Part shown: positions 10,911-41,209 of the stretch, in pieces | Layout: each line of letters begins with the position of its first letter | Position numbering within the stretch: position 1 is the stretch's first letter | Source: Candidatus Cloacimonadales bacterium | Lineage (GTDB): Bacteria > Cloacimonadota > Cloacimonadia > Cloacimonadales > JAIOQZ01 | Direction: 5' to 3' | Assembly: GCA_963665815.1 (NCBI GenBank) | Contig: OY762463.1 | Coordinates: 1,760,001 to 1,824,000, forward strand | DNA length: 64,000 nucleotides | Position numbers and translations under genes: made by a program | Notes under the pieces: model-generated | The model's database searches: none | What the model saw: the letters and a program-made list of their open reading frames with translations, nothing else | Told to the model about the DNA's origin: nothing

Positions 10911-11208
10911 GCCCTGAGCAGCAGTCAAGAACTTTTTGTATATTTTTAACCCTCAGCATTTACGAACAATTTTGTTCATTGTTCAGCTGCTTAATTTACA
11001 ACAAGATAAAGGTTAACTCTGAGTATTTACTTATATAAAATCAGCAGAAATCGTGATTGCTTTTCCATAAATCTCAAAATTTCTTAAAAATAATATTGAC
11101 GAAGGAAATAAAAAAAATCACACAATGATAATCGGAAGACTATGTATATAACTTATGATTTTTACTTTTATACAGAGCTCTCTATAATTTTAACATAATG
11201 GAGGATAT

Positions 11209-12222
11209 ATGGCTTTTTTTGATGGAATTATCAGACAATTGAGATCTGTAATCGAATGGGAATACCCAAGCAGCAATGATCTCTTCTTTCAGTGGTCAAG
11301 CGACGGAGACGAAATAAAGAATGCATCCAAATTAATTATCGGTCCCGGACAGGGCTGTATTTTTGTGTATCAGGGTAAAGTGATTTCAATGCTGGAAAGT
11401 GAAATGATGGTTGATCTGAAAACAGACAACATTCCTTTCTGGACAACTATCTCAAAAGTTATGCAGGCTTTTGAGTCTGAACATAAAGTCGGACTCTACT
11501 TCTATCGCAAAACCAGAATACTGGATCAGAAATGGGGTACTACCAGCAGTATCAAATACAATGATCCTGTCTATAACTTCCCTGTAGGGCTCAGAGCATA
11601 CGGAAACTTCAGTTTTAAAATAACTGACCCGGAAATGTTCTTCAAAACTGTCGTCGGTTCAGGTTACAACTTCACTGTTAAACACTTCAGAGATGTTGTG
11701 AACAGCAGAATTACAGAACCGCTTTCAGATTACCTTGCAGATATGAAATACTCCTATGCCGACATTGATTCAAAAAGAACTGAAATGTCTACATACTTCA
11801 TGTCAAGTCTCAAAAATGAGTTCAATAAACTTGGATTTGACCTCACTGACTTCCGTATTGAAGGGACATCATTCGATCAGGAAACACAGAAGCGAATCAA
11901 CAGAATTTCCGATCTGACTGCCGAAGCACATGCAGCAAAAGCAGCAGGAATGAACTACGCACAGGTTCAACAGCTTGATGCTCTTAAAGCCGCAGCCAAA
12001 AACGAAGGCGGTGGTGCCGGGATGCTTATGGGTGTAGGAGCAGGAGTTAATCTTGGTGGAAATATGGTAGCTGAAAATCCTTTCGGAGCAGCTCAGAAAG
12101 CTCCAAAAGCTGACTACGATCCATCTGAACGCCTGATGAAGCTGAAGAAACTGCTTAATAACGAGCTTATCTCTCAACAGGAATATGACAATAAAAAGAA
12201 ACAGATTTTAGAGGAGCTTTAA
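11209..12222 (+). CDS. SPFH/Band-7 domain protein (YdjI-like) with C-terminal SHOCT domain
   Basis: VIEW, EIKNASKLIIGPGQGCIFV, DQKWGT..IKYNDP..VGLRAYG and AAKNEGGGAG motifs. SHOCT motif ERLMKLKKLLNNELISQQEYDNKKKQIL. Confidence 0.88.
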   Translation: MAFFDGIIRQLRSVIEWEYPSSNDLFFQWSSDGDEIKNASKLIIGPGQGCIFVYQGKVISMLESEMMVDLKTDNIPFWTTISKVMQAFESEHKVGLYFYRKTRILDQKWGTTSSIKYNDPVYNFPVGLRAYGNFSFKITDPEMFFKTVVGSGYNFTVKHFRDVVNSRITEPLSDYLADMKYSYADIDSKRTEMSTYFMSSLKNEFNKLGFDLTDFRIEGTSFDQETQKRINRISDLTAEAHAAKAAGMNYAQVQQLDALKAAAKNEGGGAGMLMGVGAGVNLGGNMVAENPFGAAQKAPKADYDPSERLMKLKKLLNNELISQQEYDNKKKQILEEL

Positions 12223-12884
12223 TGCCAACCAGACTCTGTTCATCCTGTTCTGCTCCTTTGCCGTCTAACTCTAATCTCTGTGAATACTGCGGATGCTATA
12301 CTCCGTTAGATCTTATAAGTCAAAATCTGGAAATCCTTCCGGATCAGGAAGAGACACGGTATTGTCCTCACTGCGAAGTACCTATGGAATCCATATCTGT
12401 TCTGGAAGACGAACCGATTGTAATTGAACGTTGTCCTCAGTGTTACGGTTTCTGGTTTGATAAGTTCGAACTGAATCTGCTATTGAACAGACTTGTTAAA
12501 GATCCGACAATAAACGTAAAAAACATTGATATCGGTAACATGGAAGAAATCGATTTTACCAAAAAAGTTCAATACATCTCGTGCCCGGTCTGCAGTTCTA
12601 AAATGCAGAGACGTAATTACGGATACAAGTCCGGTGTTGTCTTTGATCTGTGTAATGAGCATGGAATCTATCTTGATTGTGGAGAGCTGCACCATTTGCT
12701 TCTATGGAAGAAAAACGGTGGTGAAGAACTACAGAGACTTCATGAACAGAAAATGGAAAAAATCAGAAGAAATCCGATTCCTGTTCCTGTTTCCAGATCA
12801 AGAGCTCATTACCATGGCAGATATAACGGGTATGAAGGTTTGGGATTAATCGGGACCATCCTCAGAATGCTAATTTTCCATTAA
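12222..12884 (+). CDS. Zinc-ribbon protein 1 (N-terminal ribbon plus two zf-TFIIB-like domains)
   Basis: CSSC/CEYC; CPHC..CPQCYGFWFD; CPVC..CNEHGIYLD.GEL. TAATG coupling to the SPFH gene. Confidence 0.85.
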   Translation: MPTRLCSSCSAPLPSNSNLCEYCGCYTPLDLISQNLEILPDQEETRYCPHCEVPMESISVLEDEPIVIERCPQCYGFWFDKFELNLLLNRLVKDPTINVKNIDIGNMEEIDFTKKVQYISCPVCSSKMQRRNYGYKSGVVFDLCNEHGIYLDCGELHHLLLWKKNGGEELQRLHEQKMEKIRRNPIPVPVSRSRAHYHGRYNGYEGLGLIGTILRMLIFH

Positions 12885-12886
12885 TC

Positions 12887-13456
12887 ATGATTGCAAGTAA
12901 AAGACTTTGCCCGGAATGTTCGACAGAAATGCAGACAATAACTGCATTACAGACTGTTACTGTAGGATTAGAAAAGAAAATCGAGATTGAGAAATGTCCG
13001 AATTGCGAAGGACTGTTCTTTGATAATCAGGAGCTACAGGATTTAGTAAGTTGCTTAAAGGAATATCCTGTTGATTCTGCCATAAGGTTCGATACGGAAA
13101 CTGCAAATGGCAGTATTTGGGATCGAGAACAATATAAATGCCCCATCTGCGGAGAAAAGATGCAGAAGGCTTATTATGAAGTGAAAAGCAGTGTTGCTTT
13201 TGACTATTGCCTTGGGCATGGTGTTTACCTTAATAAAGGGGAACTGACAGCAATCATCAGGTGGAAGAAAGAAAATATGGAACCAGATGATCCCGAAATC
13301 CTTGCAACATATCAGAAGAAACTTGATAAAATAAGTAAGAGAGTAAACTCTTCTGAAAAGCGATACGTTTCACCTTACGTGAAGTATTCTAAAGTTGTAG
13401 ACTATGTTTTAAGAAAACTTGCAGGATCTGTTTTTTATGGATTTATCAATTGGTAA
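12887..13456 (+). CDS. Zinc-ribbon protein 2 (two zf-TFIIB-like domains)
   Basis: CPEC..CPNCEGLFFD; CPIC..CLGHGVYLNKGEL. Confidence 0.85.
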   Translation: MIASKRLCPECSTEMQTITALQTVTVGLEKKIEIEKCPNCEGLFFDNQELQDLVSCLKEYPVDSAIRFDTETANGSIWDREQYKCPICGEKMQKAYYEVKSSVAFDYCLGHGVYLNKGELTAIIRWKKENMEPDDPEILATYQKKLDKISKRVNSSEKRYVSPYVKYSKVVDYVLRKLAGSVFYGFINW

Positions 13457-13463
13457 ATAATTT

Positions 13464-14039
13464 ATGAAGCATGACACTAAAAAAGATGCAACCAAGACCT
13501 TGAGACTCTGCCCGGAATGTTCGACAGAAATGCAGACAATAAATGCTTTGCAGACAACTATTTCCGATTTCAAAGAAAAGATAGAAATCGAAAAATGTCC
13601 GAATTGCGAAGGACTGTTCTTTGATAATCAGGAGCTGCAGAACTTAGTAAGAATACTGAAGGAATATCCAGTTGAGACTGTATTGAAAATTGATTCAGCG
13701 AAAGATAATGTGAAGAGCATTACTTCAACAGATTATACATGCCCCATCTGCGGAGAAAAGATGCAGAAGGCAAACTTCGAGTCAACCAGTGGAGTTACAT
13801 TCGATTATTGCCTCGGGCATGGTGTTTATCTTAATAAAGGTGAATTAACTGAAATCCTTAGATGGAAGAAGAATCAGAGGAAAAACAATAGTAATAAAAC
13901 TACAGAAAAATACAATGATCTAATTATGAAATCCAGGGAAAAGCAAGCAAAGACAAGGTATTTTCGGAAGTTTGATTTCGACTCTAATGATAGAATTATT
14001 GATTTTTTTGAGTTCATTTTTGATTGGTTTATATTATAA
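13464..14039 (+). CDS. Zinc-ribbon protein 3 (two zf-TFIIB-like domains), recent paralogue of protein 2
   Basis: Same motifs as protein 2 with near-identical DNA blocks. Confidence 0.85.
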   Translation: MKHDTKKDATKTLRLCPECSTEMQTINALQTTISDFKEKIEIEKCPNCEGLFFDNQELQNLVRILKEYPVETVLKIDSAKDNVKSITSTDYTCPICGEKMQKANFESTSGVTFDYCLGHGVYLNKGELTEILRWKKNQRKNNSNKTTEKYNDLIMKSREKQAKTRYFRKFDFDSNDRIIDFFEFIFDWFIL

Positions 14040-14755
14040 TGAAAACAGATGAAACAAAACAATGCCCGGTCTGCTCCGCTCCTTACGAATTTGGTATGGA
14101 AGAATGTGAATACTGCGGACATAGCTTTGATATAGAGAATCTGGAAGAAGAATTCTATGTTCTCGATGAACGTCATGAAAAAAGGTTATGTCCACACTGT
14201 AATATAGAAATGCTTTCCATCAAAGTGTTGAAAAACTACGATATAATCATTGAAAAATGCCCGAGATGTTCAGGAATGTTCTTCGATATGCAGGAAATGG
14301 AAAACCTTTTAAGACTGCTTGTAAAAGAAAAAGACGATGTAATTGAGAGAATAGACAGTTCAGATTTTAAACCTGTTGATTTTAACTCTAATGTCAGATA
14401 CATTAACTGCCCGGTCTGCAAACAACCAATGCAGAGAATCAGCTTTGAACAGGACAGCGGAGTAGTTTATGATTTTTGTCTTGGGCATGGAATCTTTCTC
14501 GATGCAGGAGAGTTGAAACAACTTACTGATTGGAAACGCCATGAAGGACAAAAGTATTTCAAGAAAGATCAGGAAGACATTAAGAAATATCTTGAGAAAA
14601 AGAATATTGAATATGATGAGAATTTCAGGATTAAGCCTCAGAGAGTAAACATGATGAAAGATTATCTTACAAGAGGCTCTGACTTTCCCAAATATGCTGC
14701 TGCTATCTATGTTGCAGTGACTATTTTCAGGCTTATTCAGATTGCGACAGGTTAG
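14039..14755 (+). CDS. Zinc-ribbon protein 4 (N-terminal ribbon plus two zf-TFIIB-like domains, hydrophobic C-tail)
   Basis: CPVC/CEYC; CPHC..CPRCSGMFFD; CPVC..CLGHGIFLD. Start placed at ATG 14039 (TAATG overlap). Confidence 0.85.
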   Translation: MKTDETKQCPVCSAPYEFGMEECEYCGHSFDIENLEEEFYVLDERHEKRLCPHCNIEMLSIKVLKNYDIIIEKCPRCSGMFFDMQEMENLLRLLVKEKDDVIERIDSSDFKPVDFNSNVRYINCPVCKQPMQRISFEQDSGVVYDFCLGHGIFLDAGELKQLTDWKRHEGQKYFKKDQEDIKKYLEKKNIEYDENFRIKPQRVNMMKDYLTRGSDFPKYAAAIYVAVTIFRLIQIATG

Positions 14756-14767
14756 AGGAGAACAATA

Positions 14768-15433
14768 ATGAAAAGAAAATGCAGTGTATGCTCGGCACCA
14801 ATGCCCGAGAACTCAAATTATTGTGAATACTGCAACACATTTAATGAATCAGATGCCAAAGACGATATACTCTTTCTGGAAAACGATAATAGCAATACGA
14901 GACTATGTCCTCATTGCGAAGTCCCCATGAGCTCTTTTCAGGCCTTGAAGGATGAAAACGTTATCATAGATATGTGTCCTGAATGCTACGGCATGTTTTT
15001 TGACAGAGGTGAACTGAGATATCTTGTTAATTTGCTTACTGATAATAAAGAGATAAACGTAAATAAAATAGATATTGGTGATTTAAAGGATATTGATCAT
15101 GTAAGATCAACTGATTATGTAAAGTGTCCTGTCTGCGGAGATACAATGCACAGAATCAACTATGAGGATTCAAGCGGTATAATATTTGATTATTGCAAAA
15201 AGCACGGTATCTATCTCGATAGTGGTGAACTTAAACAGATTCTGGCATGGAAGAAAACCAGCAAATTTGATTTCATCAGTGATAATAAGAGAAAAATCGT
15301 ACAATACACAAACGTGACAAAAGAATTTGAATTTGATGAGGATGAAGATGGCTTTAAACTTAAGCCATTTGATCCCAGTATTGTAGGAGGATCAATTGCT
15401 GCAATATTGTTCTTACTCGGATTCTTCCTGTAA
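14768..15433 (+). CDS. Zinc-ribbon protein 5 (N-terminal ribbon plus two zf-TFIIB-like domains, C-terminal TM-like tail)
   Basis: CSVC/CEYC; CPHC..CPECYGMFFD; CPVC..CKKHGIYLD; tail SIAAILFLLGFFL. Confidence 0.85.
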   Translation: MKRKCSVCSAPMPENSNYCEYCNTFNESDAKDDILFLENDNSNTRLCPHCEVPMSSFQALKDENVIIDMCPECYGMFFDRGELRYLVNLLTDNKEINVNKIDIGDLKDIDHVRSTDYVKCPVCGDTMHRINYEDSSGIIFDYCKKHGIYLDSGELKQILAWKKTSKFDFISDNKRKIVQYTNVTKEFEFDEDEDGFKLKPFDPSIVGGSIAAILFLLGFFL

Positions 15434-15444
15434 AAGGTGACTTT

Positions 15445-16041
15445 ATGAAAGTAAAAAGATGTATAACCTGCTCTGCCCCGTTACCGTCGAATTCTTCGGT
15501 ATGCGAATATTGCGGTAACAACAATCCTCTGGATATCACCGATCAGAATATGAGCATTATCGATAATTGCGACAAGATAAGATCCTGCCCACACTGCAAA
15601 ACTGCTATGGAGACTGTCAGGCTGGACGAGTGCAGCGGACTTGAGATAGAACGATGCCCGAAGTGCTTCGGGTTCTTCTTCGATTTAAATGAGCTGGAGG
15701 AACTGCTGGACTATCTCGTTAGAGAAACTGTTGAAGATAAAGAGAGCATTGACAAAATCAACGAGTATACAAGTAATTTTTCCACAGATGTTACATACAA
15801 AAGATGCCCTGTATGCCATGCAAGAATGCGACGTCTGAATTTTGGTTATAAGAGCGGAATAATATATGACTTTTGTGATGATCATGGAATCTTTCTCGAC
15901 AGCGGAGAGCTGGATCACCTTGTAAAATGGTGCAGACATGGTGGTGCAGAACTAAACAGAGTTTATAAGAAAAAACTTAAAGAACGGAAAAGATATGTCT
16001 ATACACGTGGCTTCAGACCGGCAAGATGCTCAGGGATATAA
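15445..16041 (+). CDS. Zinc-ribbon protein 6 (N-terminal ribbon plus two zf-TFIIB-like domains, basic C-tail)
   Basis: CITC/CEYC; CPHC..CPKCFGFFFD; CPVC..CDDHGIFLD. Confidence 0.85.
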   Translation: MKVKRCITCSAPLPSNSSVCEYCGNNNPLDITDQNMSIIDNCDKIRSCPHCKTAMETVRLDECSGLEIERCPKCFGFFFDLNELEELLDYLVRETVEDKESIDKINEYTSNFSTDVTYKRCPVCHARMRRLNFGYKSGIIYDFCDDHGIFLDSGELDHLVKWCRHGGAELNRVYKKKLKERKRYVYTRGFRPARCSGI

Positions 16042-16044
16042 TTT

Positions 16045-16449
16045 ATGAGATATACCAATAATGTGATAGGGATAAATCCACAACAATTACATGGATTCTT
16101 CGTGGGCTGGCCAAACAAACCTGCTCCGGAAAAACACTTGGAGATATTGAAGAACAGCGCTTATATCTGGCTGGCAATAGATGAGGAAAATGACAAGGTT
16201 GTTGGTTTTGTGAATGCTGTCTCCGACAAAACCATGTCGGCTTATATTCCGTTACTGGAGGTACTGCCGGAATATCAGGGACAAGGCATTGGATCAGAGC
16301 TGATGAAGAGAATGCTCAGTACGCTCAAAGATTTGTATATGATTGATCTTGCCTGTGATATAGATAAAATGGACTTCTACGAGAAACTCGGACTTGTAAA
16401 AGGCAACTTGATGATGAAACGGAACTATGACAGACAGAATTGTGAGTGA
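16045..16449 (+). CDS. GNAT family N-acetyltransferase
   Basis: Acetyl-CoA motif LEVLPEYQGQGIGSELM and FYEKLG. Confidence 0.9.
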   Translation: MRYTNNVIGINPQQLHGFFVGWPNKPAPEKHLEILKNSAYIWLAIDEENDKVVGFVNAVSDKTMSAYIPLLEVLPEYQGQGIGSELMKRMLSTLKDLYMIDLACDIDKMDFYEKLGLVKGNLMMKRNYDRQNCE

Positions 16450-17611
16450 GATAGAAAAGTTGAGAAGACTTAACTTACTTTATATCTTAATAGCACTTAT
16501 ACTGAATGTATCATGTGCTTTTACCAAACCTGTTTCTCATCATAATGCATCAAAAGCTGTTGGACTTCAAAAGGAAGCTCGAAAGCTGGCAAATATTGTA
16601 AATCCGGATGATACTTATAGATACTCTAAATCTGATAAAGATTCAACAGCAATTGAGATTCTTGAAGGTGCTAATGCACTCGATCCAAATAATCAAAAAA
16701 TAGCTCTTGATCTTGCTTCCATTTACTACAGAAATAAGATGTATAGAGAAACAGCGATATTAGCAGAAAAGTATTTAAAGAAAGATACAACCGGTGATTT
16801 TTATAGTTTGTGTGTAAGAGGACACTATTTGAGAGATGATAATAGAAATTATAAAAAAGCTGACAGAATAATTGAAAAAGGATATAGGAAATTCCCAGAT
16901 AATCCGAGATTGTGTGTAGCATTTACTCGGCATTTGTTAAGTATGCAGGAAAAATGCGATTTCCTTAAATCTATTCTCAAAAAAAATCAATATCATATTG
17001 AAACAATGGATGAGTTATCATTTAAATTGAAGAATACAAGCAATGTCACTGAGTCAATGTACTATGGTGAGTTAGTTAGATTGTTCGATACAAATCAATC
17101 GAATTCAGATAATGAAAGCGATTTTCTATTTATTAAATATAAGGATTGCTTCAAGTTTGAGAACAACAAATTGAAATTTGACTACAACTTTGTGCAATTA
17201 GATTTTAGCAGGATTCTCCGAGAGATGGATAATGCTAAAAAACAGAAACGGGGAGTAATTATTGGAGTGAACTCAAAAACATCTTCAGTTAGAAAATCTA
17301 CATTTTCAAAAACTCTTGAAGATTATTATCTCAAAGCATCATTTAATGTAAGAGAATTTAGTTTTTCAAATCTAATACTAATAAGGAAAAATTTGATAAA
17401 ACTGTATTTCATGTATGAAAAAAACAAGCAAAATCCGGATAGACTTTTCGCATTCCACAAACAACTCATTGACCAGAACTTGTTCGAAGCATACAATTAC
17501 TGGCTTTTCAGATATGGTGTTGGAGAAAAGGAATTCAACAAATGGTATGCAGACCACCAGAATGACTACGAAAAAGTAGAGGCAATCGTACGAAGCAAAT
17601 TCAGATCATAG
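16427..17611 (+). CDS. Putative TPR-containing lipoprotein
   Basis: Hydrophobic segment ending in NVSC, TPR-like helices (ANALDPNN; YRKFPDNP). True start may be TTG 16460. Confidence 0.6.
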   Translation: MTDRIVSEIEKLRRLNLLYILIALILNVSCAFTKPVSHHNASKAVGLQKEARKLANIVNPDDTYRYSKSDKDSTAIEILEGANALDPNNQKIALDLASIYYRNKMYRETAILAEKYLKKDTTGDFYSLCVRGHYLRDDNRNYKKADRIIEKGYRKFPDNPRLCVAFTRHLLSMQEKCDFLKSILKKNQYHIETMDELSFKLKNTSNVTESMYYGELVRLFDTNQSNSDNESDFLFIKYKDCFKFENNKLKFDYNFVQLDFSRILREMDNAKKQKRGVIIGVNSKTSSVRKSTFSKTLEDYYLKASFNVREFSFSNLILIRKNLIKLYFMYEKNKQNPDRLFAFHKQLIDQNLFEAYNYWLFRYGVGEKEFNKWYADHQNDYEKVEAIVRSKFRS

Positions 17612-17860: not shown

Positions 17861-18142
17861 ATGGGTTCAAGAACAAGCTTAATAGGTATGTTAATTAACG
17901 CTGGAATAAAGGCTGAAAAAGAAAGATTAAGGGAATTAAAAAGACAAGAGCGGGAAAACATCAAAAATGAAAAAGAAAGAATTAAACTTCTTAAACAAAT
18001 TGAAAAACAACGACAAATTGATTTAAAAGAACAATTCAAAAATGCACTTGAAGAGGAAAAAAAATCTTACGAGCAAAGGATTGTCTATAGACGTAATTTA
18101 AGAATTAAATTTTTGAATAGGGTTCAGGAGGTAAATTTATGA
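17861..18142 (+). CDS. Small charged coiled-coil protein
   Basis: AAGGAG RBS, K/E/R-rich helix, ATGA overlap with the next gene. Confidence 0.65.
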   Translation: MGSRTSLIGMLINAGIKAEKERLRELKRQERENIKNEKERIKLLKQIEKQRQIDLKEQFKNALEEEKKSYEQRIVYRRNLRIKFLNRVQEVNL

Positions 18143-19581
18143 TTACTAAATTTTTACTTTTTTTGTTCATAGTTCTCTCTATTGTATTTTTTGTTGCTGC
18201 TTCGTACTTTTACTATCAAGTATATTCTAAGAGAAAGAAAAAAAAATCATTACATAAAGAACTTAAAGATATATTTGACGAAATTGGAATGAAAAAGCAG
18301 GAAGTTAAAAAACTTGAGAGCAAAATGGCCAGAATGAATGAGGAATTTTCTCATCTGAAAGAGCTTGAGAAGAATGAGATTGCAATCAGAGATAGCTTGA
18401 AAATTTCAGAAAATAGCTTGATGATTATTAAAGAAGAAATTGCGACCTTTAGTAACAAAAAAAATCTCATATCAAAAGAACTGGAATTTATGAAAAGGGA
18501 TATATCACTTTATAAACCAGTACATAATTTGATTGAACTAGGCTTTACTGATGAACCTGAGTATTTACAAAATACAAGTGAGGTGTATAAGGAACAGTTA
18601 AAAGCCATACGTGAACGACAAAAAGAGTTAATTGCAAATCAGTCTGCAATAATTGTCCCGGAATCAATTGCACTAACCAATAATGGTGCTCATGCGAAAA
18701 AAGTACTGAATGGACAATCCAGACTAATGCTCAAAGCTCTAAATACAGAATGTGACCTGCTTTTATCTAAAGTTAAAACCAGTAACTACCCTCGAATTCT
18801 CGAGCGGATTGATAGGTTAGCAGGTACAATTGAAAAAGCTGCTGCATCGTTGAAATGTGGGTTCAGCAAGGAGTATATTGAACTCAAATATAAGGAATGT
18901 GAGCTTCAATATCATTATAAGCTTAAAGAAGCTCGAGAAAAAGAAGAACAGGCATTAATCAAGGAGCAGATGAAAGAAGAGCAAAAAGCAATTAAAGAAT
19001 TTGAAAGAGCTCTGGCAAAAGCCCAAAAAGAAGAGCAGATGTATAGAAAAGCGCTTGAGGATGTCAAAAATGAATTGACGCTAACCAGTGATAAAGATAG
19101 AAATATCCTTCTTGAAAAAATCAGCGTATTGGAAAAACAACTGCAAGAGGCAGAAGAAAATGAAAAAAGAGCTATAAGCATGGCAGAGCAAACCAAAAGA
19201 GGTCACGTGTATGTGATTAGCAATATAGGATCGTTCGGAGAAAATATCTATAAAATCGGATTGACCAGGCGATTGGAACCCCTTGATAGAGTAAAAGAAC
19301 TTGGAGGAGCCAGTGTTCCATTCTCTTTCGATGTTCATGCAATGATTTACAGTGAAGATGCTCCAGCTCTTGAATCGCAATTACATAGAGAGTTTTCAAA
19401 GTTTAGAGTTAATCAGGTGCAATTGAGAAAGGAATTCTTTGATGTTGATTTAGCTAAAATACGAGAAAAGGTCATTGAAATCACTGGAAATGAACTTGAT
19501 TTTAAAGTGACGGCATTAGCAGAAGACTATTATGAATCACTGGAAATACGTAGAAGTTTAGAGGCTAAAGCCGGATCATAA
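18139..19581 (+). CDS. Membrane-anchored DUF4041 plus T5orf172/GIY-YIG nuclease (PD-Lambda-1/SNIPE-like)
   Basis: N-terminal TM helix, coiled coil, DUF4041 core (LMLKALNTECD..YIELKYKECEL..EKEEQ), C-terminal GHVYVISNIGSFGENIYKIGLTRRLEPLDRVKELGGASVPFSFDVHA..KEFF. Confidence 0.85.
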   Translation: MITKFLLFLFIVLSIVFFVAASYFYYQVYSKRKKKKSLHKELKDIFDEIGMKKQEVKKLESKMARMNEEFSHLKELEKNEIAIRDSLKISENSLMIIKEEIATFSNKKNLISKELEFMKRDISLYKPVHNLIELGFTDEPEYLQNTSEVYKEQLKAIRERQKELIANQSAIIVPESIALTNNGAHAKKVLNGQSRLMLKALNTECDLLLSKVKTSNYPRILERIDRLAGTIEKAAASLKCGFSKEYIELKYKECELQYHYKLKEAREKEEQALIKEQMKEEQKAIKEFERALAKAQKEEQMYRKALEDVKNELTLTSDKDRNILLEKISVLEKQLQEAEENEKRAISMAEQTKRGHVYVISNIGSFGENIYKIGLTRRLEPLDRVKELGGASVPFSFDVHAMIYSEDAPALESQLHREFSKFRVNQVQLRKEFFDVDLAKIREKVIEITGNELDFKVTALAEDYYESLEIRRSLEAKAGS

Positions 19582-27419: not shown

Positions 27420-30400
27420 TTAAATCTCTATTTCTCCTACAAACATTATGTCTTTATTCTTCTTGAGTTTCACTTCAATACGTTTGACTTTCTGATCAGA
27501 CTTACCATAATTTGTATAGATCGAAGCATACACAATCACCGAGCCTGTCAGCTCCTGACGGCTTTCCGAATAATACTTGGCTTTAATCCTGTAGGTGCCT
27601 TTCTCAGCCTTTCTGATAGTGTATTCTTCCGGACCATAGCCCTGGGTAAAGTCTTTGCTGAGTTTACCGCCTGATTTAGTGTTCTTGTTTTGATAATAAC
27701 ACTTTTCTCCACTTGGCTCAATAACCCATAAATCAATGTCGTTGTCGTTGCTGCTCCAATCCAGAACAATCCGTACGTCATACTCAAATGGATGGATCAG
27801 GTCTGTATTGATATCCGAGAGATCCAGTTGATCCCTATGCCCGGATATCAAACTGTTCATTTCGTTTATGATGATCGGTTTAGTATCAGAGAATCTCTCC
27901 CATCTATTATTCATAATGTGATTGAATGTATCCAGAGCCATCTGGAGTTTGCCGGCTGCCTGATATGCAAGTGCAAGATCTCTGTATGATTGCGGTTCTT
28001 CCGGTCTCAGCTTCTTTACTTCCTCAAAAAGAATGATAGCCGGATCATACTTGCCGATTTCTACAAGCTTCTTAGCCAGAATACGCATTAAAACAGGATT
28101 CTCCAGATCAATCTCAACCATATTAGTAAATACCCTGTATGCCTCTTCCAGTCTCTGCTTTTCTACCAGTGCTTTGGCAGAATTGAAGTAGAAGTAAGGA
28201 TTATTAAAATCCTCTTTCTTCTGCCTATAATATAGTTCCCAGAACTCTTCAATGTCAGCTTTTCGCATTCTCTTGATGTACTCAGTATTGCTGCTCCAGC
28301 CGGCAACATTAATACCGGATTTATCGCCACCCTTACTTTTCTTACTCCCGCTTCTTCCTCTTTCGACAATATTCATTACGCCTGATTGAGTGTTTCCATA
28401 ACCTTCGGGTGAGTTGAACGTTTCACTTGAACTGCGAACTGCATCATCATCTACAGAAAGTGATGCACCTCCATCAATCATAATGGTTGTTTCGTTAGCT
28501 CTTCCACCTCTTGCATGAGATACTCCACCAACTGTAACAGTTCCGGGACTGTTCTCCATAAACTGGCTTATTGATGAGCTTTCAATTGTCTCAACCATTT
28601 CAAGGTCATCTTCATTTGCTTCTTCTCCGATATCATCAATAACAATTTCCTGAGCCTTAATTCTTCTGATACCCTGTTGTTCAAATGATCGTGCCGGCTC
28701 TGAACTGGTTTCTCTTCGAGATGATCCGGATTTGGAACTAAGCAATTTAGGCTTACGATCTGTTACTGTAATAGCACTGGTTTTTATTGTAGCGAACCCT
28801 AATTCTGCATTCAATTCTATACTTTCATTGTCTTTAATTTTAACATCATTGATTTCCGCTTCCCTATACCCCATTCTTTTAAATTTGATAGTGTAAATCC
28901 CTTCTTCAAGTCCTGTAACATAATATTTACCAACCTCATTTGTCATAGCATTAGCAACCAATGAATTTCCGAGATAAACCAGAATAATAGCACCATGTAG
29001 AGGCTCTCCCTTTCTATTTGACACCACTCCAGATACTCCACTTTTTCCAGTACCACTTATCTTTACTATCTTCGAAGTCAGCTCTTTATTTAGTTCAACG
29101 TCTTGATTGAGTATAGTTTGTTTCCCCATCTCAATTTTTACGTTCTCAATCTTGACGTTTTCAATTTCTCTCGATGAAAATACAAGAGTATAAACTGAAG
29201 GAATAATTCCATCAATCCGGTACTCTCCATTTTTATCTGTCATTGCAGAGTTCACACATTTTCCATGTTTCTTGACAGTTACTCTTACGTACTGCATTGC
29301 TTCACCATATTGGTTGATAATCACACCTGCCACTGAACCCATTTTGTCTTTAGGATAATACCATCTAAATAGTTTCTGAACGAATCTGAAATTCTCCATA
29401 AATGGCACTTTCTTTTTTATTTCTTTTTTGCTGTTACTTATACGGGCAACCTGTCTTTTAAAGCTTTCTGTCTGCAACTCAGGCGGAGGTTCTATGCCGT
29501 GTCTGATGTAGTCCTGAAGCCTGTCCAGTACAAGCAGAGATGTGTTTTGGGTCACAATTGTGTGCTCCCTTGCCAGATTAAGCAGTTTTTCCTTGTTCTC
29601 TTCATAATCCTGTTCAAGATACTGTATTTTCTTTACAGCCCAGATTCTCTGCACCTTTGCTTGAGCGTCTTTATTGATCATAACGTTTTTAGTTATCTTC
29701 TCACCGTTAATCCTGCCAAAACTGATTTCCAGCTCAGCTTCATCCGACCCGAGCAGTCCGACCATCTCAAATGTTTTACCATAGGAGCTCATACTCTTTG
29801 GATAGACCTCGTATACATTGCCGTCAACTTCCTCAAGAGAAAGAAATCTCTGGCTGACAGTGTTTATTCTCTGCAATGCTTCGTCTACAGACAGCTTTCT
29901 AAGGTTAAGATATTCTCCACCGGATTCACCTGATAGCTTCTTCAGGTAGCCATAGTTACTGCCTGTACTGGATGAAATGGTGTATGCCGGTACATCACCC
30001 AGGGTTATATTCTCTTTCCCCAGTGTATTTATTCCGTCTGAGAAAAGCAGAATCTCATCCGCTTTTACAGTAAAATCCAGATTCATCAGGTTTGTTCCAC
30101 CGTCATATTTAAGCTCTTCCAGATAACTCTTTACATGATTCGATATACTCTTACCGGTAAATACTTTCTTATCGTGAATCTCATTGCTGAAAGTAATAAT
30201 CTCTACTTTTGCACCTTCGGGGAGTGTTTTCAGATAAGCTGAAAGGAATGCTGTTTCCTTTTCAATATCTCGTTTATCACCGGAGTTTGAAACATCCCAG
30301 TAAACTGTCAGCATTTGGGGTATACTCTTCGTCTCTGATTTGAATACAGGTGGTTCCATTGTTATATAGAAATAGGTTTCACCTTCGTATTCACTGGTGT

Positions 30401-31100
30401 AAACTTCGTAATCATTGGTAACGTACTTCGGGATATCGAATGCAAGTTCTTTATTGGTCTTGAAGTTTTTCTTTTTGTAATTGATTGTCTTGTAGCCGTC
30501 ATCCTCACCGCATATTACTTTCTTCAGTCCGGCAAGAAAACCTTTCAACTCAGGGGATTTATCTGCAACCTTAATCTTGAGATCGAAGTCTTTTATTTTT
30601 CCTGCGCGTTCCAGAGGAACAGCATACTTATAGCTTGTATCATCTCCATCAAGTGTTTCGCATATGGCAATTACCACTCTTTTGAATCCTTTGGAGGGTA
30701 CAGGATAAATCTTGGTTTTAAAGAAGTTACCTTTGGTTTTGTTTATAATACCGGGATCTATCTTACGTCTGATGACTTTCTCGAAGGTCTGTCTTGCTTT
30801 AATCTTTTCTACGATTACGCCTTCTCTGAGTTTCCCGTTAACATCCAGAGCATAACGGCAAATTTCCTGTCCCTCCGCCATGGGCATGGATAATTCACCG
30901 GTAAGTATACGGTTGTTTGGGTTGTAAAAGTTCATGTCGTAAGTAGTTGTGGCTATGTTCCCGACAACCTCAACATCAATTGTTAATGATGACAGCTCTA
31001 GAGGTTTTTCATCTTTGCTGCTTACAACAGTTAGTGATGGAACCTGAGCAAAACTTGTACATACAATTGCCAATAATAGTAATATCCAGATAGATTTCAT
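27420..31100 (-). CDS. Secreted VIT - vWA-like - carboxypeptidase-regulatory x2 - TonB-plug-like - TPR - DUF2135 (YfaP) protein
   Basis: VIT motif (NPNNRILTGEL..YALDVNGKLREGVIVEK), WDVSNSG/YDGGT/LLFSDG, RPEEPQSYRDLAL, and DIDLWVIEPSGE..DFTQGYGPEEY. Confidence 0.88.
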   Translation of the reverse strand: MKSIWILLLLAIVCTSFAQVPSLTVVSSKDEKPLELSSLTIDVEVVGNIATTTYDMNFYNPNNRILTGELSMPMAEGQEICRYALDVNGKLREGVIVEKIKARQTFEKVIRRKIDPGIINKTKGNFFKTKIYPVPSKGFKRVVIAICETLDGDDTSYKYAVPLERAGKIKDFDLKIKVADKSPELKGFLAGLKKVICGEDDGYKTINYKKKNFKTNKELAFDIPKYVTNDYEVYTSEYEGETYFYITMEPPVFKSETKSIPQMLTVYWDVSNSGDKRDIEKETAFLSAYLKTLPEGAKVEIITFSNEIHDKKVFTGKSISNHVKSYLEELKYDGGTNLMNLDFTVKADEILLFSDGINTLGKENITLGDVPAYTISSSTGSNYGYLKKLSGESGGEYLNLRKLSVDEALQRINTVSQRFLSLEEVDGNVYEVYPKSMSSYGKTFEMVGLLGSDEAELEISFGRINGEKITKNVMINKDAQAKVQRIWAVKKIQYLEQDYEENKEKLLNLAREHTIVTQNTSLLVLDRLQDYIRHGIEPPPELQTESFKRQVARISNSKKEIKKKVPFMENFRFVQKLFRWYYPKDKMGSVAGVIINQYGEAMQYVRVTVKKHGKCVNSAMTDKNGEYRIDGIIPSVYTLVFSSREIENVKIENVKIEMGKQTILNQDVELNKELTSKIVKISGTGKSGVSGVVSNRKGEPLHGAIILVYLGNSLVANAMTNEVGKYYVTGLEEGIYTIKFKRMGYREAEINDVKIKDNESIELNAELGFATIKTSAITVTDRKPKLLSSKSGSSRRETSSEPARSFEQQGIRRIKAQEIVIDDIGEEANEDDLEMVETIESSSISQFMENSPGTVTVGGVSHARGGRANETTIMIDGGASLSVDDDAVRSSSETFNSPEGYGNTQSGVMNIVERGRSGSKKSKGGDKSGINVAGWSSNTEYIKRMRKADIEEFWELYYRQKKEDFNNPYFYFNSAKALVEKQRLEEAYRVFTNMVEIDLENPVLMRILAKKLVEIGKYDPAIILFEEVKKLRPEEPQSYRDLALAYQAAGKLQMALDTFNHIMNNRWERFSDTKPIIINEMNSLISGHRDQLDLSDINTDLIHPFEYDVRIVLDWSSNDNDIDLWVIEPSGEKCYYQNKNTKSGGKLSKDFTQGYGPEEYTIRKAEKGTYRIKAKYYSESRQELTGSVIVYASIYTNYGKSDQKVKRIEVKLKKNKDIMFVGEIEI

Positions 31101-37699: not shown

Positions 37700-40600
37700 A
37701 TGAAAAAATTATTGACACTACTATTATTTGTAATCGTGTGCACAGGATTTGCTCAGGTGCCGTCTCTCGATATTGTCAGCCGCAGATCGTTTAAACCTGT
37801 TGAATTAAGAGAGTTGAATGTTGAGGTAGAAGTGGTCGGCAACATTGCAACAACAACCTATGACATGACATTCTATAACCCCAACCACAGCGAACTGGCT
37901 GGCATATTCTCCATGCCTCTTACAGAAGGACAGGAAATCTGCCGATATGCAATGGAGACCAGAGGTGAGTTACGCGAAGGTGTTGTTGTAGAAAAGGTCA
38001 AAGCCAGACAAACCTACGAAGCAGAAGTAAAACGCGGCAAAAATCCGGGGATCGTCAGCAAAACCAAAGGAAATTTCTTTAAGACAAAGGTCTACCCCAT
38101 CCCCAAGAAAGAAACTAAAAGAATAGTATTTGCCATTAGCCAGACACTGGATGGAGATGCAGACAACTATTTCTATTCATTACCTCTGGAGAATGGGCAG
38201 AGAATTAAGAAATTTGATCTTTCGATAAGAGTTGCGAACAGTGATGTAGTTCTGAAAGGCTTTCTTAATACACTTAAAAAGCTTGTTTACAGTAATGAAA
38301 AAGGCTATAGAGTTATCAAATACAGTGATAAGAAGTTCAAAGCCGACAAAACTCTGGAATTTGAGATTCCAAAATACAAAGACAATGATTATGCAGTATA
38401 TACAGGTGAATACGAAGGAGAAACCTACTTTTATGTTACAATGAAAGCTCCTGAACTTCAGGATACAAGAAAAAAGGCACCTTCAAGCGTTGCTGTCTTC
38501 TGGGATGTATCAAACTCAGGCTACAGAAGAAACCTGAGTGAAGAGCTTACTTTCCTGAGAGAATACCTGAAAATGCTTCCCGGTTCCACCAGAATAAGTG
38601 TTTCAGGGTTCAGTAATGACATCAACTATTACAAAGAGTTCAATGATTCGAAATCCGGACAGGAAATACTCGATTATATCAAAACATTCAGTTATGATGG
38701 GGGAACCAACCTCAACAATCTTGATCTGCCTGATGACTATGATGAAATCATCCTGTTCTCGGATGGCATCAACACAATCGGAGAAGAAAGTGCTCTTGAA
38801 AGTAGCAGACCTGTTTATACAGTTTCTTCTGCAGCAGGTAGCAACTATACATTCCTGCATAAAACAGCTGAAGCTTCTGACGGGGAATTCCTTAATCTCA
38901 GCAGATTCGGCATAGTATACTGTCTCAAAAAGATTACAACAGTCAGAAGAAAAAGCCTGTCATATAAAATCAAAAGCGGTGATGTATACTCAATATATCC
39001 AAAAATAAAAACAACTATTGATAAACACTTTGAATTCAGCGGAATTATTAGTTCTGACGAAGCAGAGATTGAAGTTGATTTCGGATCATCCAACGGAGAA
39101 AAAGTAACTCGATCAATCAAAATTAAAACGGAAAATAATGTACCTGTTCACAGAATCTGGGCAACAAAAAAAATGCACTTTCTGGAAAGAGATTATGATA
39201 CAAACAAAGATGAAATACTGAATCTCGGGCGAGAACATACAATCGTTACCCGAAATACATCATTGATAGTATTGAAAAGCATCTACGACTACAAGAAGCA
39301 TGGAATCCTTCCTCCTCCCGATATGCTGACATCCTACAATAAATATAGTTACGAAACAAAGGAGAAAACCACTGAGTCTAAAGCTCATTTACAAAAAAGA
39401 AACCTGCAATTATTGGAGAGACTTCTTAACTGGTATATTGATATTAATGATACTTCGAATAACCTTACAGATATTGATAATTTTCAAAATGACAATAATA
39501 AGACATATAAAGAGTACACAAATTCAAGATATCCTGGTGGACATGGATCATTATCAGGGGTGATTAAGGACAAAGATAAAGCAAATCTACAAGGAGTGTT
39601 TGTTCTCGTTAGAGATAATGGTGAACTAATTGGTCATACTCTGACAGATGAAAAGGGAGAGTATTGCGTTGATAACCTTCCAACTGGTCCATGCTCAGTA
39701 GAAATTAAAAAAATAGGTTACCAAAGCCTTATTTTTGACAATATCGCAATAACAGGCTCTAATGATATTTTAGATGCTAACCTTTCTATTCAAACCCTCA
39801 AATCGAATGTAATATGTATTAAAGGCAGTAGTTCCCCAAAAGGCAGTAGTTCCCCAGGATATAATGCTTCCGAAGATATTAAAAGTATAAACGACCTTAT
39901 AAGTCAGTCTCCCGGCACAATCACAGTAAGTGGTAAATCCCATGCACGTGGTGGAAGAGGCACTGAAACAAAGATTATGATAGATGGTATGCAGGCGAGT
40001 GATAATGTTGACGGAGGAGCAGCATTAGGTGTTTTTCCGAGTGGATCATATAAAAATCCATATGGTTATCAAACTTACGACGCATCCGATGACTCAGATA
40101 ATATCGACAAAGCACTAAATGCACAATCATTTGCAATGAATATAATAACAAGTAAAGATAATGAACATGAGGCATTCCTGATTGACATTGAAAATCTGGA
40201 GAAAGTTGATTTCAGTTCTGATAACCTCTATATTACCAAAGATAATGATGAACTGCTGAAGAACATGAAATACGATTATCAGAGAGAACGATATTTGAGT
40301 TCTCGAGCTGCTGGGTTGAAACTTATATCTTGGAATCAGGACAGTGTGTACACCCAACGATTACTTGCGGCAGAGCCTGATTCTCTCGGGAGAATCTATT
40401 TTAACTTCAAGAAAAATAATATGAACAATCCATTCTTTTACTATAACTCTTCCATGGTATTCGAACAGAGAGGATTGCCTGATGCTGCAAGAAGAATTCT
40501 TACCAATATGGTGGAAATTGATCTGGAAAATGCTGAATTGATCAGATTAGTCGCGAGACAGCTTCTAAGCATTAAAGATTACGATGGAGCTCTGGCTCTG

Positions 40601-41209
40601 TTTGATGAAGTAAGAGAGCTTAGACCGGAAGAACCTCAGTCATTACGCGATCTGGCACTTGCCAGTCAGGAAGCAGGTTATTATCAGCAGGCATTGAATC
40701 TGTTCATGCATATTATCAACAATGAGTGGAAAGATGAAAAAGATATTAAAACTATCGTGCTCAACGAAATGAATAATCTCATTTTCCTCCACAATGACAA
40801 AATAAGCGTCAAAGGGATAGACCCGATATTTATCAACTATATGCCTCTCGATGTCAGAATTGTACTTGAATGGAGTAGTAAAGATGCTGATGTTGACCTG
40901 ATTGTGATGGAACCTGGCGATGAGAAATGCTGTTTCTCCAACAGATACACCAAATCAGGTGGAAAAATGACTTCTGACATGTCAAGAGGATATGGTCCAG
41001 AGGAATATACAATACGTTATGCCCCAAAGGGAATGTTCAGGGTAAAAGTGAGGAACCTCACTGAAAAAAAATACTTAGAGAAGTCTGCGATTGTTGGATA
41101 TGCTTCTATCTACACAAAGTATGGCACTAATGATCAGACTGTGCAGAAACTGACATTCGAGCTGAAAGAACAGGGTGAATTACTGATGCTGGGGACAATA
41201 AATCCTTAG
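37700..41209 (+). CDS. Secreted VIT - vWA-like - carboxypeptidase-regulatory - TonB-plug-like - TPR - DUF2135 protein (paralogue 2)
   Basis: Collinear with 27420..31100: FAQVPSL, VEVVGNIATTTYDM, WDVSNSG, LRPEEPQSLRDLAL and GYGPEEY. Confidence 0.88.
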   Translation: MKKLLTLLLFVIVCTGFAQVPSLDIVSRRSFKPVELRELNVEVEVVGNIATTTYDMTFYNPNHSELAGIFSMPLTEGQEICRYAMETRGELREGVVVEKVKARQTYEAEVKRGKNPGIVSKTKGNFFKTKVYPIPKKETKRIVFAISQTLDGDADNYFYSLPLENGQRIKKFDLSIRVANSDVVLKGFLNTLKKLVYSNEKGYRVIKYSDKKFKADKTLEFEIPKYKDNDYAVYTGEYEGETYFYVTMKAPELQDTRKKAPSSVAVFWDVSNSGYRRNLSEELTFLREYLKMLPGSTRISVSGFSNDINYYKEFNDSKSGQEILDYIKTFSYDGGTNLNNLDLPDDYDEIILFSDGINTIGEESALESSRPVYTVSSAAGSNYTFLHKTAEASDGEFLNLSRFGIVYCLKKITTVRRKSLSYKIKSGDVYSIYPKIKTTIDKHFEFSGIISSDEAEIEVDFGSSNGEKVTRSIKIKTENNVPVHRIWATKKMHFLERDYDTNKDEILNLGREHTIVTRNTSLIVLKSIYDYKKHGILPPPDMLTSYNKYSYETKEKTTESKAHLQKRNLQLLERLLNWYIDINDTSNNLTDIDNFQNDNNKTYKEYTNSRYPGGHGSLSGVIKDKDKANLQGVFVLVRDNGELIGHTLTDEKGEYCVDNLPTGPCSVEIKKIGYQSLIFDNIAITGSNDILDANLSIQTLKSNVICIKGSSSPKGSSSPGYNASEDIKSINDLISQSPGTITVSGKSHARGGRGTETKIMIDGMQASDNVDGGAALGVFPSGSYKNPYGYQTYDASDDSDNIDKALNAQSFAMNIITSKDNEHEAFLIDIENLEKVDFSSDNLYITKDNDELLKNMKYDYQRERYLSSRAAGLKLISWNQDSVYTQRLLAAEPDSLGRIYFNFKKNNMNNPFFYYNSSMVFEQRGLPDAARRILTNMVEIDLENAELIRLVARQLLSIKDYDGALALFDEVRELRPEEPQSLRDLALASQEAGYYQQALNLFMHIINNEWKDEKDIKTIVLNEMNNLIFLHNDKISVKGIDPIFINYMPLDVRIVLEWSSKDADVDLIVMEPGDEKCCFSNRYTKSGGKMTSDMSRGYGPEEYTIRYAPKGMFRVKVRNLTEKKYLEKSAIVGYASIYTKYGTNDQTVQKLTFELKEQGELLMLGTINP
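39821..39856 (+). repeat. 18-bp in-frame tandem duplication (KGSSSP x2)
   Basis: AAAGGCAGTAGTTCCCCA present twice. Confidence 0.9.

Follow-up and report, generated by a model that had tools for sequence, protein, structure and literature searches.

The 64,000-nucleotide (64-kb) stretch analysed here, which we call the window, comes from a Candidatus Cloacimonadales bacterium (contig OY762463.1, positions 1,760,001 to 1,824,000 of the forward strand) and contains a gene for a soluble SPFH protein followed by six tandem paralogues, Z1 to Z6, whose products carry zinc ribbons. We find that this array is a lineage-specific, copy-number-variable expansion of one half, the putative adaptor half, of a widespread and uncharacterised SPFH–zinc-ribbon gene pair. 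Our preferred reading, to which we assign a probability of about 45%, is that the locus is an expanded form of a two-gene membrane-scaffold module, in which the Z proteins would act as adaptors that recruit the SPFH protein to the membrane.

The initial annotation of this DNA had described one SPFH gene followed by six tightly packed paralogues with two TAATG overlaps and then a GNAT gene, an arrangement that the coordinates and junctions bear out:

11161..11188, forward strand: promoter-like site (TTTACT, 16-nt spacer, TATAAT; 10/12 consensus matches), 20 nt 5' of the SPFH start; a lead only, because the region has 38 such sites against 34.1 expected
11209-12222, forward strand: soluble SPFH gene, 337 amino acids (aa), Pfam Band_7_1
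12222-12884, forward strand: Z1, 220 aa, one N-terminal ribbon ahead of two TFIIB-type ribbons, with a C-terminal helix of moderate hydrophobicity
12887-13456, forward strand: Z2, 189 aa, a short form that lacks the N-terminal ribbon and has an amphipathic C-terminus
13464-14039, forward strand: Z3, 191 aa, likewise short and lacking the N-terminal ribbon, with an acidic-aromatic amphipathic C-terminus
14039-14755, forward strand: Z4, 238 aa from ATG, N-terminal ribbon, two ribbons, the longest tail and a transmembrane (TM)-like end
14768-15433, forward strand: Z5, 221 aa, three ribbons including the N-terminal one, then an acidic spacer and a tail-anchor-like C-terminal segment
15445-16041, forward strand: Z6, 198 aa, three ribbons including the N-terminal one; the short tail is basic and lacks a hydrophobic end
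16045-16449, forward strand: GNAT acetyltransferase, 134 aa, Pfam Acetyltransf_1 (E 1.8e-13), 3 nt past Z6

The intergenic gaps from Z1 to the GNAT gene are 2, 7, 12, 11 and 3 nt, the TAATG stop/start overlaps lie at SPFH/Z1 and Z3/Z4, and the GNAT gene is probably co-transcribed with the Z genes. A Shine-Dalgarno-like motif, GGAGGA, precedes the SPFH ATG, Z4 has an alternative TTG start at 14024 that would give 243 aa, and an Rfam scan of the window returned no RNA family.

To place the locus among its relatives, we aligned the SPFH protein with 25 relatives and ran a profile search of contigs drawn from one genome per species, which yielded 344 SPFH-encoding loci; the best 80 were taken and scanned with a hidden Markov model (HMM) built from the six Z proteins. 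Copy number beside the SPFH homologues, a count that the initial annotation had proposed, is six in the window, eight in tandem in the nearest relative (L001, a Candidatus Cloacimonadales metagenome-assembled genome, and the sole array among the 80 loci) and exactly one, directly downstream of the SPFH gene, in 68 of the 80, making the array variable and lineage-specific. Eleven loci have no adjacent Z gene (ten without any match and L038 with a weak, distant match only). The 68 include one locus in two pieces (L010), one cut by a contig end (L047) and one with an inflated open reading frame (ORF) call (L036). In the last of these, a 499-aa ORF resembling an SPFH-Z fusion proved to be an out-of-frame ORF in a GC-rich genome, the SPFH and Z genes being separate and adjacent.

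The single-copy pairs come from Methylococcales, Campylobacterota, Fibrobacterota, Planctomycetota, Nitrospirota and Bacteroidota, belong to the same SPFH subfamily (52-61% identity), show the same Z architecture and have 0-5 nt spacing; over the 67 loci in which the SPFH-Z gap was measured, among them the window and L001, its median is 1 nt. They differ from the window in having one Z protein with a conserved amphipathic end, as opposed to six with diversified ends, and in having no GNAT gene. Beyond the Z gene we found no conserved neighbour among the 80 loci; a GNAT gene and a gene for a TPR protein recur in L001 only, and the GNAT gene is a lineage-specific passenger outside the conserved module. 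As an estimate of family size, a profile search of 1.84 billion cluster representatives (50% identity) matched at least 217 at E 1e-30, 4,250 at 1e-10 and 12,177 at 0.001.

Loci that lack a Z gene often carry other membrane proteins upstream of the SPFH gene, Tim44-like in 7 loci and TPM-domain in 5, and these Tim44-like and TPM-domain (YdjH-like) proteins are possible alternative anchoring partners. We also observed that the Tim44-like protein upstream of SPFH in L032, L045, L061, L079 and L080, as well as in L062 and L071, has a Ser/His-rich stretch.

The window and L001 are syntenic from an efflux operon of the resistance-nodulation-division (RND) type and a divergent TetR gene through the array, and the flanking genes are closely similar (RND pump 84.6% identical, membrane fusion protein 95.0%, outer membrane protein 91.5%, TetR 94.9%, GNAT 94.0%) with dN/dS ratios (omega) of 0.06-0.08. 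We built a maximum-likelihood tree of 79 Z proteins, comprising the 6 window copies, the 8 copies of L001 (R1 to R8) and 65 single-copy proteins. A single branch with an SH-aLRT support of 99 separates the 14 Cloacimonadales copies from the others, and for five of the six window copies the direct sister is a copy of L001 (support 96-100). The sixth, Z3, is placed beside the group R4/(Z2,R3) with a support of 82, and its orthologue by identity is R4. The orthologous pairs are as follows:

Z1 and R1: 81% identical, omega 0.14
Z2 and R3: 70% identical, omega 0.39
Z3 and R4: 76% identical, omega 0.25
Z4 and R5: 77% identical, omega 0.09
Z5 and R7: 84% identical, omega 0.08
Z6 and R8: 88% identical, omega 0.07

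R2 and R6, the two copies present in L001 only, sit on deep branches (length ~1.0-1.1), and as whole genes they are absent from the window without remnants, which is best read as loss. We considered whether Z1 or Z4 could be chimeric through unequal crossing-over at the missing copies and rejected this, the tails aligning with R1 and R5 and not with R2 and R6. Comparison with 195 database proteins added just one member to the expanded clade, P0126 from a third genome, which is 69% identical to R4.

Within the array, the linker and second ribbon of the Z2/R3 and Z3/R4 pairs show unusually few synonymous differences, their proportion (pS) being 0.00-0.08 as against 0.3-0.5 in flanking genes. These stretches (window 12899-13275 and 13660-13870, matching L001 12365-12723 and 12917 onward) have a nucleotide identity of 90.7% against a background of 80-85%, a pattern suggestive of recent exchange or of gene conversion, either inside an array or from one array to another.

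The heads of the six paralogues are strongly conserved. Each contains two stretches matching Pfam PF13453 (Zn_ribbon_TFIIB; E 4.6e-14 to 1.6e-19), and the HMM built from the six has exactly six matches in the window, far beyond chance (E 1.9e-66 to 2.6e-98). Pairwise identity among the paralogues is 33-56%, and their alignment holds 31 invariant columns that include all zinc ligands, namely both CPxC..CPxCxG..FD..E ligand sets and the set CPxC..S....DxCxxHG..L..GEL.....W, in which the second knuckle of the second ribbon is CxxH. The core motifs that the initial annotation had assigned to all six are indeed common to them, with slight departures from its wording (EM for EL in Z4, and I for V in Z5 and Z6). 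It had also been right about an extra N-terminal ribbon in four copies: Z1, Z4, Z5 and Z6 have a DZR-like CxxC...CxxC ribbon, which passes the Pfam cut-off in Z1 only and whose four cysteines are at least 90% conserved among 56 family members. The confident AlphaFold2 (AF2) model of Z1 (mean predicted local distance difference test score, pLDDT, 85.6; predicted template-modelling score, pTM, 0.71) consists of ribbon-plus-helix units and a separate C-terminal helix at residues 208-219.

The only meaningful Protein Data Bank (PDB) relative of the Z1 model is ZifS of Thermus thermophilus (TTHA0897, PDB 8yoz), whose one PF13453 ribbon and following helix match Z ribbon 1 (profile E 9.7e-9; Foldseek probability 0.98, 39% identity over 49 columns); ZifS differs in being an 82-residue single-domain protein. 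It gives no guidance on Z function, because a literature search found no paper on it, and a search of the literature for zf-TFIIB together with SPFH likewise found nothing relevant. NCBIfam has no family for the SPFH protein, Z1, Z5 or Z6 and gives only sub-threshold zinc-ribbon fragments for the remaining Z proteins, a PHROGs scan produced only weak matches to families of unknown function, and the ESM Atlas contributed only unnamed PF13453 clusters. A search for fused or longer Z forms of 420-2000 aa found none, which is weak evidence.

Among the wider homologues, P0269 has a Z core with a different end, a Kdo-kinase-like domain, and P0203, P0278, P0289, P0300, P0305, P0309 and P0314 are chains of ~300-446 aa with 3-5 PF13453 ribbons each. 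Duplication has thus occurred at the level of the domain as well as of the gene.

The membrane-facing part of the proposal concerns the ends of these proteins. The initial annotation had held that linkers and tails are entirely different from copy to copy, which we do not find: the linker between the two ribbons aligns, with D103 invariant, and in five of the six tails a charged spacer leads into a C-terminal hydrophobic or amphipathic helix. The tails are 36-73 residues long and contain no further Pfam domain. In 63 single-copy Z proteins, a 40-residue charged spacer is followed by a conserved amphipathic motif in the last ~14 residues (of the type DLL-x-S-V-S-S-L-V-F-K-L-F), with a median hydrophobic moment of 0.57 and a mean hydrophobicity of 0.37, and the Z spacers are rich in K/R (median 0.21 of residues). 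In the window, the moment is high in Z2 (0.59) and Z3 (0.62) and intermediate in Z1 and Z4. The last 19 residues of Z4 reach a Kyte-Doolittle score of 1.63, and the Z5 tail is the most hydrophobic and TM-like (2.13 over 19 residues, moment 0.15, mean hydrophobicity 0.82). In a distant homologue, P0174, the Z tail is replaced by a genuine two-TM Pmp3 domain, which fits a membrane-anchoring role of the Z C-terminus.

We next compared selection along the proteins by pooling the corresponding regions of the six orthologue pairs. Omega was 0.11 in the N-terminal ribbon, 0.070 in ribbon 1, 0.16 in the linker, 0.043 in ribbon 2 and 0.24 in the tail. Bootstrap intervals span 0.038-0.080 for the combined cores and 0.14-0.32 for the tails; these values are rough because dS, the synonymous divergence, is high (0.4-1.8). 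All six Z genes of the window are maintained under purifying selection, the tails being less constrained (61% identical between orthologues), and in no region does omega exceed 1, so that we see no sign of diversifying selection. The difference between cores (0.04-0.07) and tails that the initial annotation had proposed to look for is therefore present. Non-uniform selection and a variable copy number together describe an array other than the fixed, evenly constrained one that it had set against its idea of an adaptor repertoire. Of that idea, the constant heads and variable tails fit and the expansion is real; diversifying selection is not seen, and the binding of Z heads to SPFH is presumed.

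The same figures could be taken to mean that the extra copies are redundant, kept for dosage or drifting after tandem duplication, with tail differences reflecting relaxed constraint on a low-complexity region. Tails do have the highest omega and the lower orthologue identity just given, R2 and R6 are missing from the window genome without visible scars, and a single copy suffices in 68 of the 80 loci. We nevertheless think redundancy improbable: the identities between copies point to old duplications, six orthologous pairs remain intact under purifying selection in two genomes at dS ~0.4-1.8, and the class of tail is kept between orthologues, Z5 and R7 both being TM-like and Z6 and R8 both basic. 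We infer instead some functional specialisation of the copies.

If the Z proteins are adaptors, the SPFH protein should depend on a partner for its membrane location, and its features are consistent with this. It matches Band_7_1 (PF13421) with 126.7 bits against a cut-off of 24 (E 1.2e-36), and the arrangement along the chain is as follows:

28-235: Band_7_1 domain
to ~264: helical extension
~266-303: Gly/Ala/Met-rich disordered stretch (the model is disordered over residues 255-303)
305-336: two-helix SHOCT-like end

Of the domains that the initial annotation had named, Band_7_1 and PF13453 are thus above their cut-offs, whereas SHOCT stays below it (24.6 bits against the Pfam cut-off of 27), although the AF2 model has a SHOCT-like two-helix C-terminus at 305-336. 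This monomer model (pLDDT 68.8, with a confident SPFH domain) retrieved prohibitin, stomatin, HflK/C, flotillin and QmcA in Foldseek, at E 2e-7 and weaker (43 PDB chains at E<=0.001). No TM-grade segment was found on the Kyte-Doolittle scale, the highest 19-residue score being 1.15 within the Gly-rich stretch, and there is no N-terminal hydrophobic segment corresponding to the TM helix or hairpin of stomatin, HflK/C and flotillin. A cage is not established, because the helical extension is only ~40 residues long. The SPFH gene is the most constrained of the neighbourhood (97.6% identity to L001, omega 0.029), and the database relatives P0002 and P0017 are 65-66% identical to its product.

Pairs of an SPFH-fold scaffold with a dedicated small partner are known from the SPFH-NfeD (stomatin/QmcA-YbbJ) and HflK/C-FtsH types, whose scaffolds form cages and resemble the present SPFH protein in fold. 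Pfam found no NfeD or FtsH partner in the operon or the window, and the present SPFH protein, unlike those of both types, has no TM or hairpin anchor.

The closest studied parallel is an envelope-stress module of B. subtilis, PspA-YdjG-YdjH-YdjI (YdjGHI being renamed SamGHI). There, YdjI/SamI is a soluble SPFH protein whose membrane foci are abolished by deletion of ydjG or ydjH (PMC8581546); YdjG/SamG is a zinc-finger membrane protein, and SamG is called 'a membrane anchor for SamI' (PMC13713150); and YdjG consists of two zinc ribbons, a YpeB-related NTF2-like domain and a TM segment (Ravi et al., PMC11237479). That soluble SPFH proteins of the YdjI type go together with zinc-ribbon membrane proteins, as the initial annotation had noted, is therefore in print (PMC8581546, PMC13713150, PMC11237479), and the mechanism that brings soluble SPFH proteins to the membrane is called unclear both in 2021 and in 2026 (PMC8581546, PMC13713150).

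Compared by their described features, the two systems share a soluble Band-7-type SPFH protein with a low-complexity stretch behind its SPFH domain, encoded beside a protein that carries two zinc ribbons on the cytoplasmic side, and the Z proteins have the two N-terminal-side ribbons reported for YdjG (PMC11237479). They differ in that the SPFH gene comes first here, the Z proteins add a third, N-terminal ribbon and end in a short C-terminal helix in place of YdjG's NTF2-like domain and TM segment, the SPFH protein ends SHOCT-like where YdjI ends in a zinc ribbon, and there are six putative adaptor copies as opposed to one. The name 'Psp-type operon' does not suit this locus, as no PspA or TPM match was found by Pfam among the 46 window ORFs scanned. 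The SPFH-Z pair is thus of a kind with YdjG/YdjI but lacks the features by which that family is defined.

In the adaptor reading, the ordinary Z protein would be a compact three-ribbon head, a charged spacer and a short C-terminal amphipathic helix, of which the head would bind the SPFH oligomer and the helix would tether the SPFH-Z complex to the cytoplasmic membrane from the inside. Tandem duplication in one Cloacimonadales lineage would have raised the number of adaptor genes to at least eight, of which the window genome would have kept six. We propose that facing a single, near-invariant SPFH partner has kept the heads constant. The variable ends would face the membrane or other factors and would have diverged into peripheral amphipathic (Z2, Z3), intermediate (Z1, Z4), tail-anchor-like (Z5) and purely basic (Z6) forms, which would let a single scaffold attach in more than one manner, or to membranes in different states. 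We favour this reading because the SPFH and Z genes are tightly paired, the SPFH protein has no anchor of its own and the Z proteins have amphipathic or TM-like ends, and also because loci without a Z gene carry TPM (YdjH-like) and Tim44-like membrane proteins instead.

Seen this way, the locus by itself reveals no new kind of system. It helps to define a simpler, widespread two-gene form, an SPFH protein and a triple-ribbon candidate adaptor with a C-terminal amphipathic helix; it offers a natural experiment in which the adaptor alone has been multiplied and its membrane end diversified; and it predicts that the heads bind SPFH and that the tails set membrane attachment. A bolder version, in which six to eight adaptors turn over between close relatives and their tails serve as membrane addresses (amphipathic, tail-anchored or charge-based) for one near-invariant SPFH scaffold, strikes us as doubtful. 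If true, a bacterial membrane-microdomain scaffold would here be targeted by a combinatorial code, adjusted as close relatives gain and lose whole adaptor genes.

Several points weigh against recruitment by Z adaptors. The binding of SPFH and Z proteins in this family is something we infer; predictions of an SPFH + Z1 complex, both proteins with alignments, scored 0.26 and 0.18 against a mark of 0.32 and count neither for nor against it. For the B. subtilis proteins, the available part of the two-hybrid report gives YdjG-YdjH and YdjH-YdjI interactions and no YdjG-YdjI contact (PMC8581546), and YdjH is among the proteins absent from our locus. Membrane binding by the tails is predicted from hydrophobicity scales, on which a TM-like end appears in Z4 and Z5 only, the tails of Z1 to Z3 falling under the usual TM threshold, and Z6 has a purely basic end with no hydrophobic tail. 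The 11 loci without an adjacent Z gene keep the Gly-rich segment and the SHOCT end, and the SPFH protein may therefore reach the membrane alone or through other partners. Furthermore, the distribution counts cover the best 80 of 344 relatives, and inspection found no recognisable Shine-Dalgarno motif at the starts of Z2, Z3 and Z4.

A rival reading takes the Z proteins to be clients of the scaffold and not its anchors, that is, membrane-tethered regulators or nucleic-acid binders that the SPFH protein sequesters or releases, with the six copies governing different outputs. The names in Pfam and JGI ('transcription factor zinc-finger', 'Zn-finger nucleic acid-binding protein') point this way, as do the K/R-rich spacers, the basic Z6 tail and the proposal for B. 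subtilis that SamI restrains SamGH signalling (PMC13713150). These names are family labels, however, and not tested functions. Moreover, neither Pfam nor NCBIfam finds a helix-turn-helix, sigma or anti-sigma domain in any Z protein, the only solved relative, ZifS, is a small stand-alone zinc-finger protein of unknown role, and the sole adjacent regulator is the divergent TetR gene beside the efflux operon, which is not conserved across the loci. On balance we regard a regulatory role as unlikely and retain recruitment of SPFH by Z adaptors as the better account.

The initial annotation had also raised an anti-phage or envelope-surveillance role, in which the array would act together with a neighbouring membrane nuclease and the diversified copies would be sensors. 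The nuclease gene lies 1.7 kb downstream of the GNAT gene (18139-19581, forward strand) and its product, with an N-terminal TM helix followed by DUF4041 and T5orf172/MUG113, is a full-length match to PD-Lambda-1 (PADLOC E 2.4e-150; PHROG 1847 E 2.9e-128). Beyond this proximity, the difference of six to eight copies between close relatives and the faster evolution of tails than of cores could be read in favour of defence. PD-Lambda-1 is, however, a known single-gene system with its own TM segment, and no homologue of it occurs in any of the 80 related loci, including the syntenic position of the eight-copy L001, so that the gene looks like a variable insertion. Ten other proteins were compared with PADLOC-DB 2.0: nine, among them the SPFH protein, five Z proteins, GNAT and TPR, had no match, and the match of Z3 to PglX (E 0.0017, 14.5 bits) is at chance level.

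The SPFH gene has no close relative in phage or plasmid collections either (best 30% and 25% identity, respectively), and there is therefore no sign of the module on known mobile elements. Omega above 1 is found in no region of the Z proteins, and the surrounding window is ordinary chromosome, with efflux, transport and polysaccharide genes in the Pfam scan. We therefore take PD-Lambda-1 to be an unrelated, stand-alone neighbour and consider a defence role for the array very improbable. A 93-aa ORF lies just upstream of the PD-Lambda-1 gene, at 17861-18142.

Among the other neighbours, the TPR protein (16427-17611, forward strand) has a lipoprotein-like N-terminus; its gene evolves faster than any other in the neighbourhood (only 52.5% protein identity between window and L001, omega 0.17) and is duplicated in L001 (16510-17682 and 17711-18853). 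An ORF of at least 2,513 aa (56458-63999, reverse strand) runs off the end of the window. Two proteins with VIT and CarboxypepD_reg domains, of 1,226 and 1,169 aa (27423-31100, reverse strand, and 37700-41206, forward strand), flank a cluster of genes for secreted or cell-surface products that include beta-helix, DUF4842/DUF4114 and phosphodiesterase proteins.

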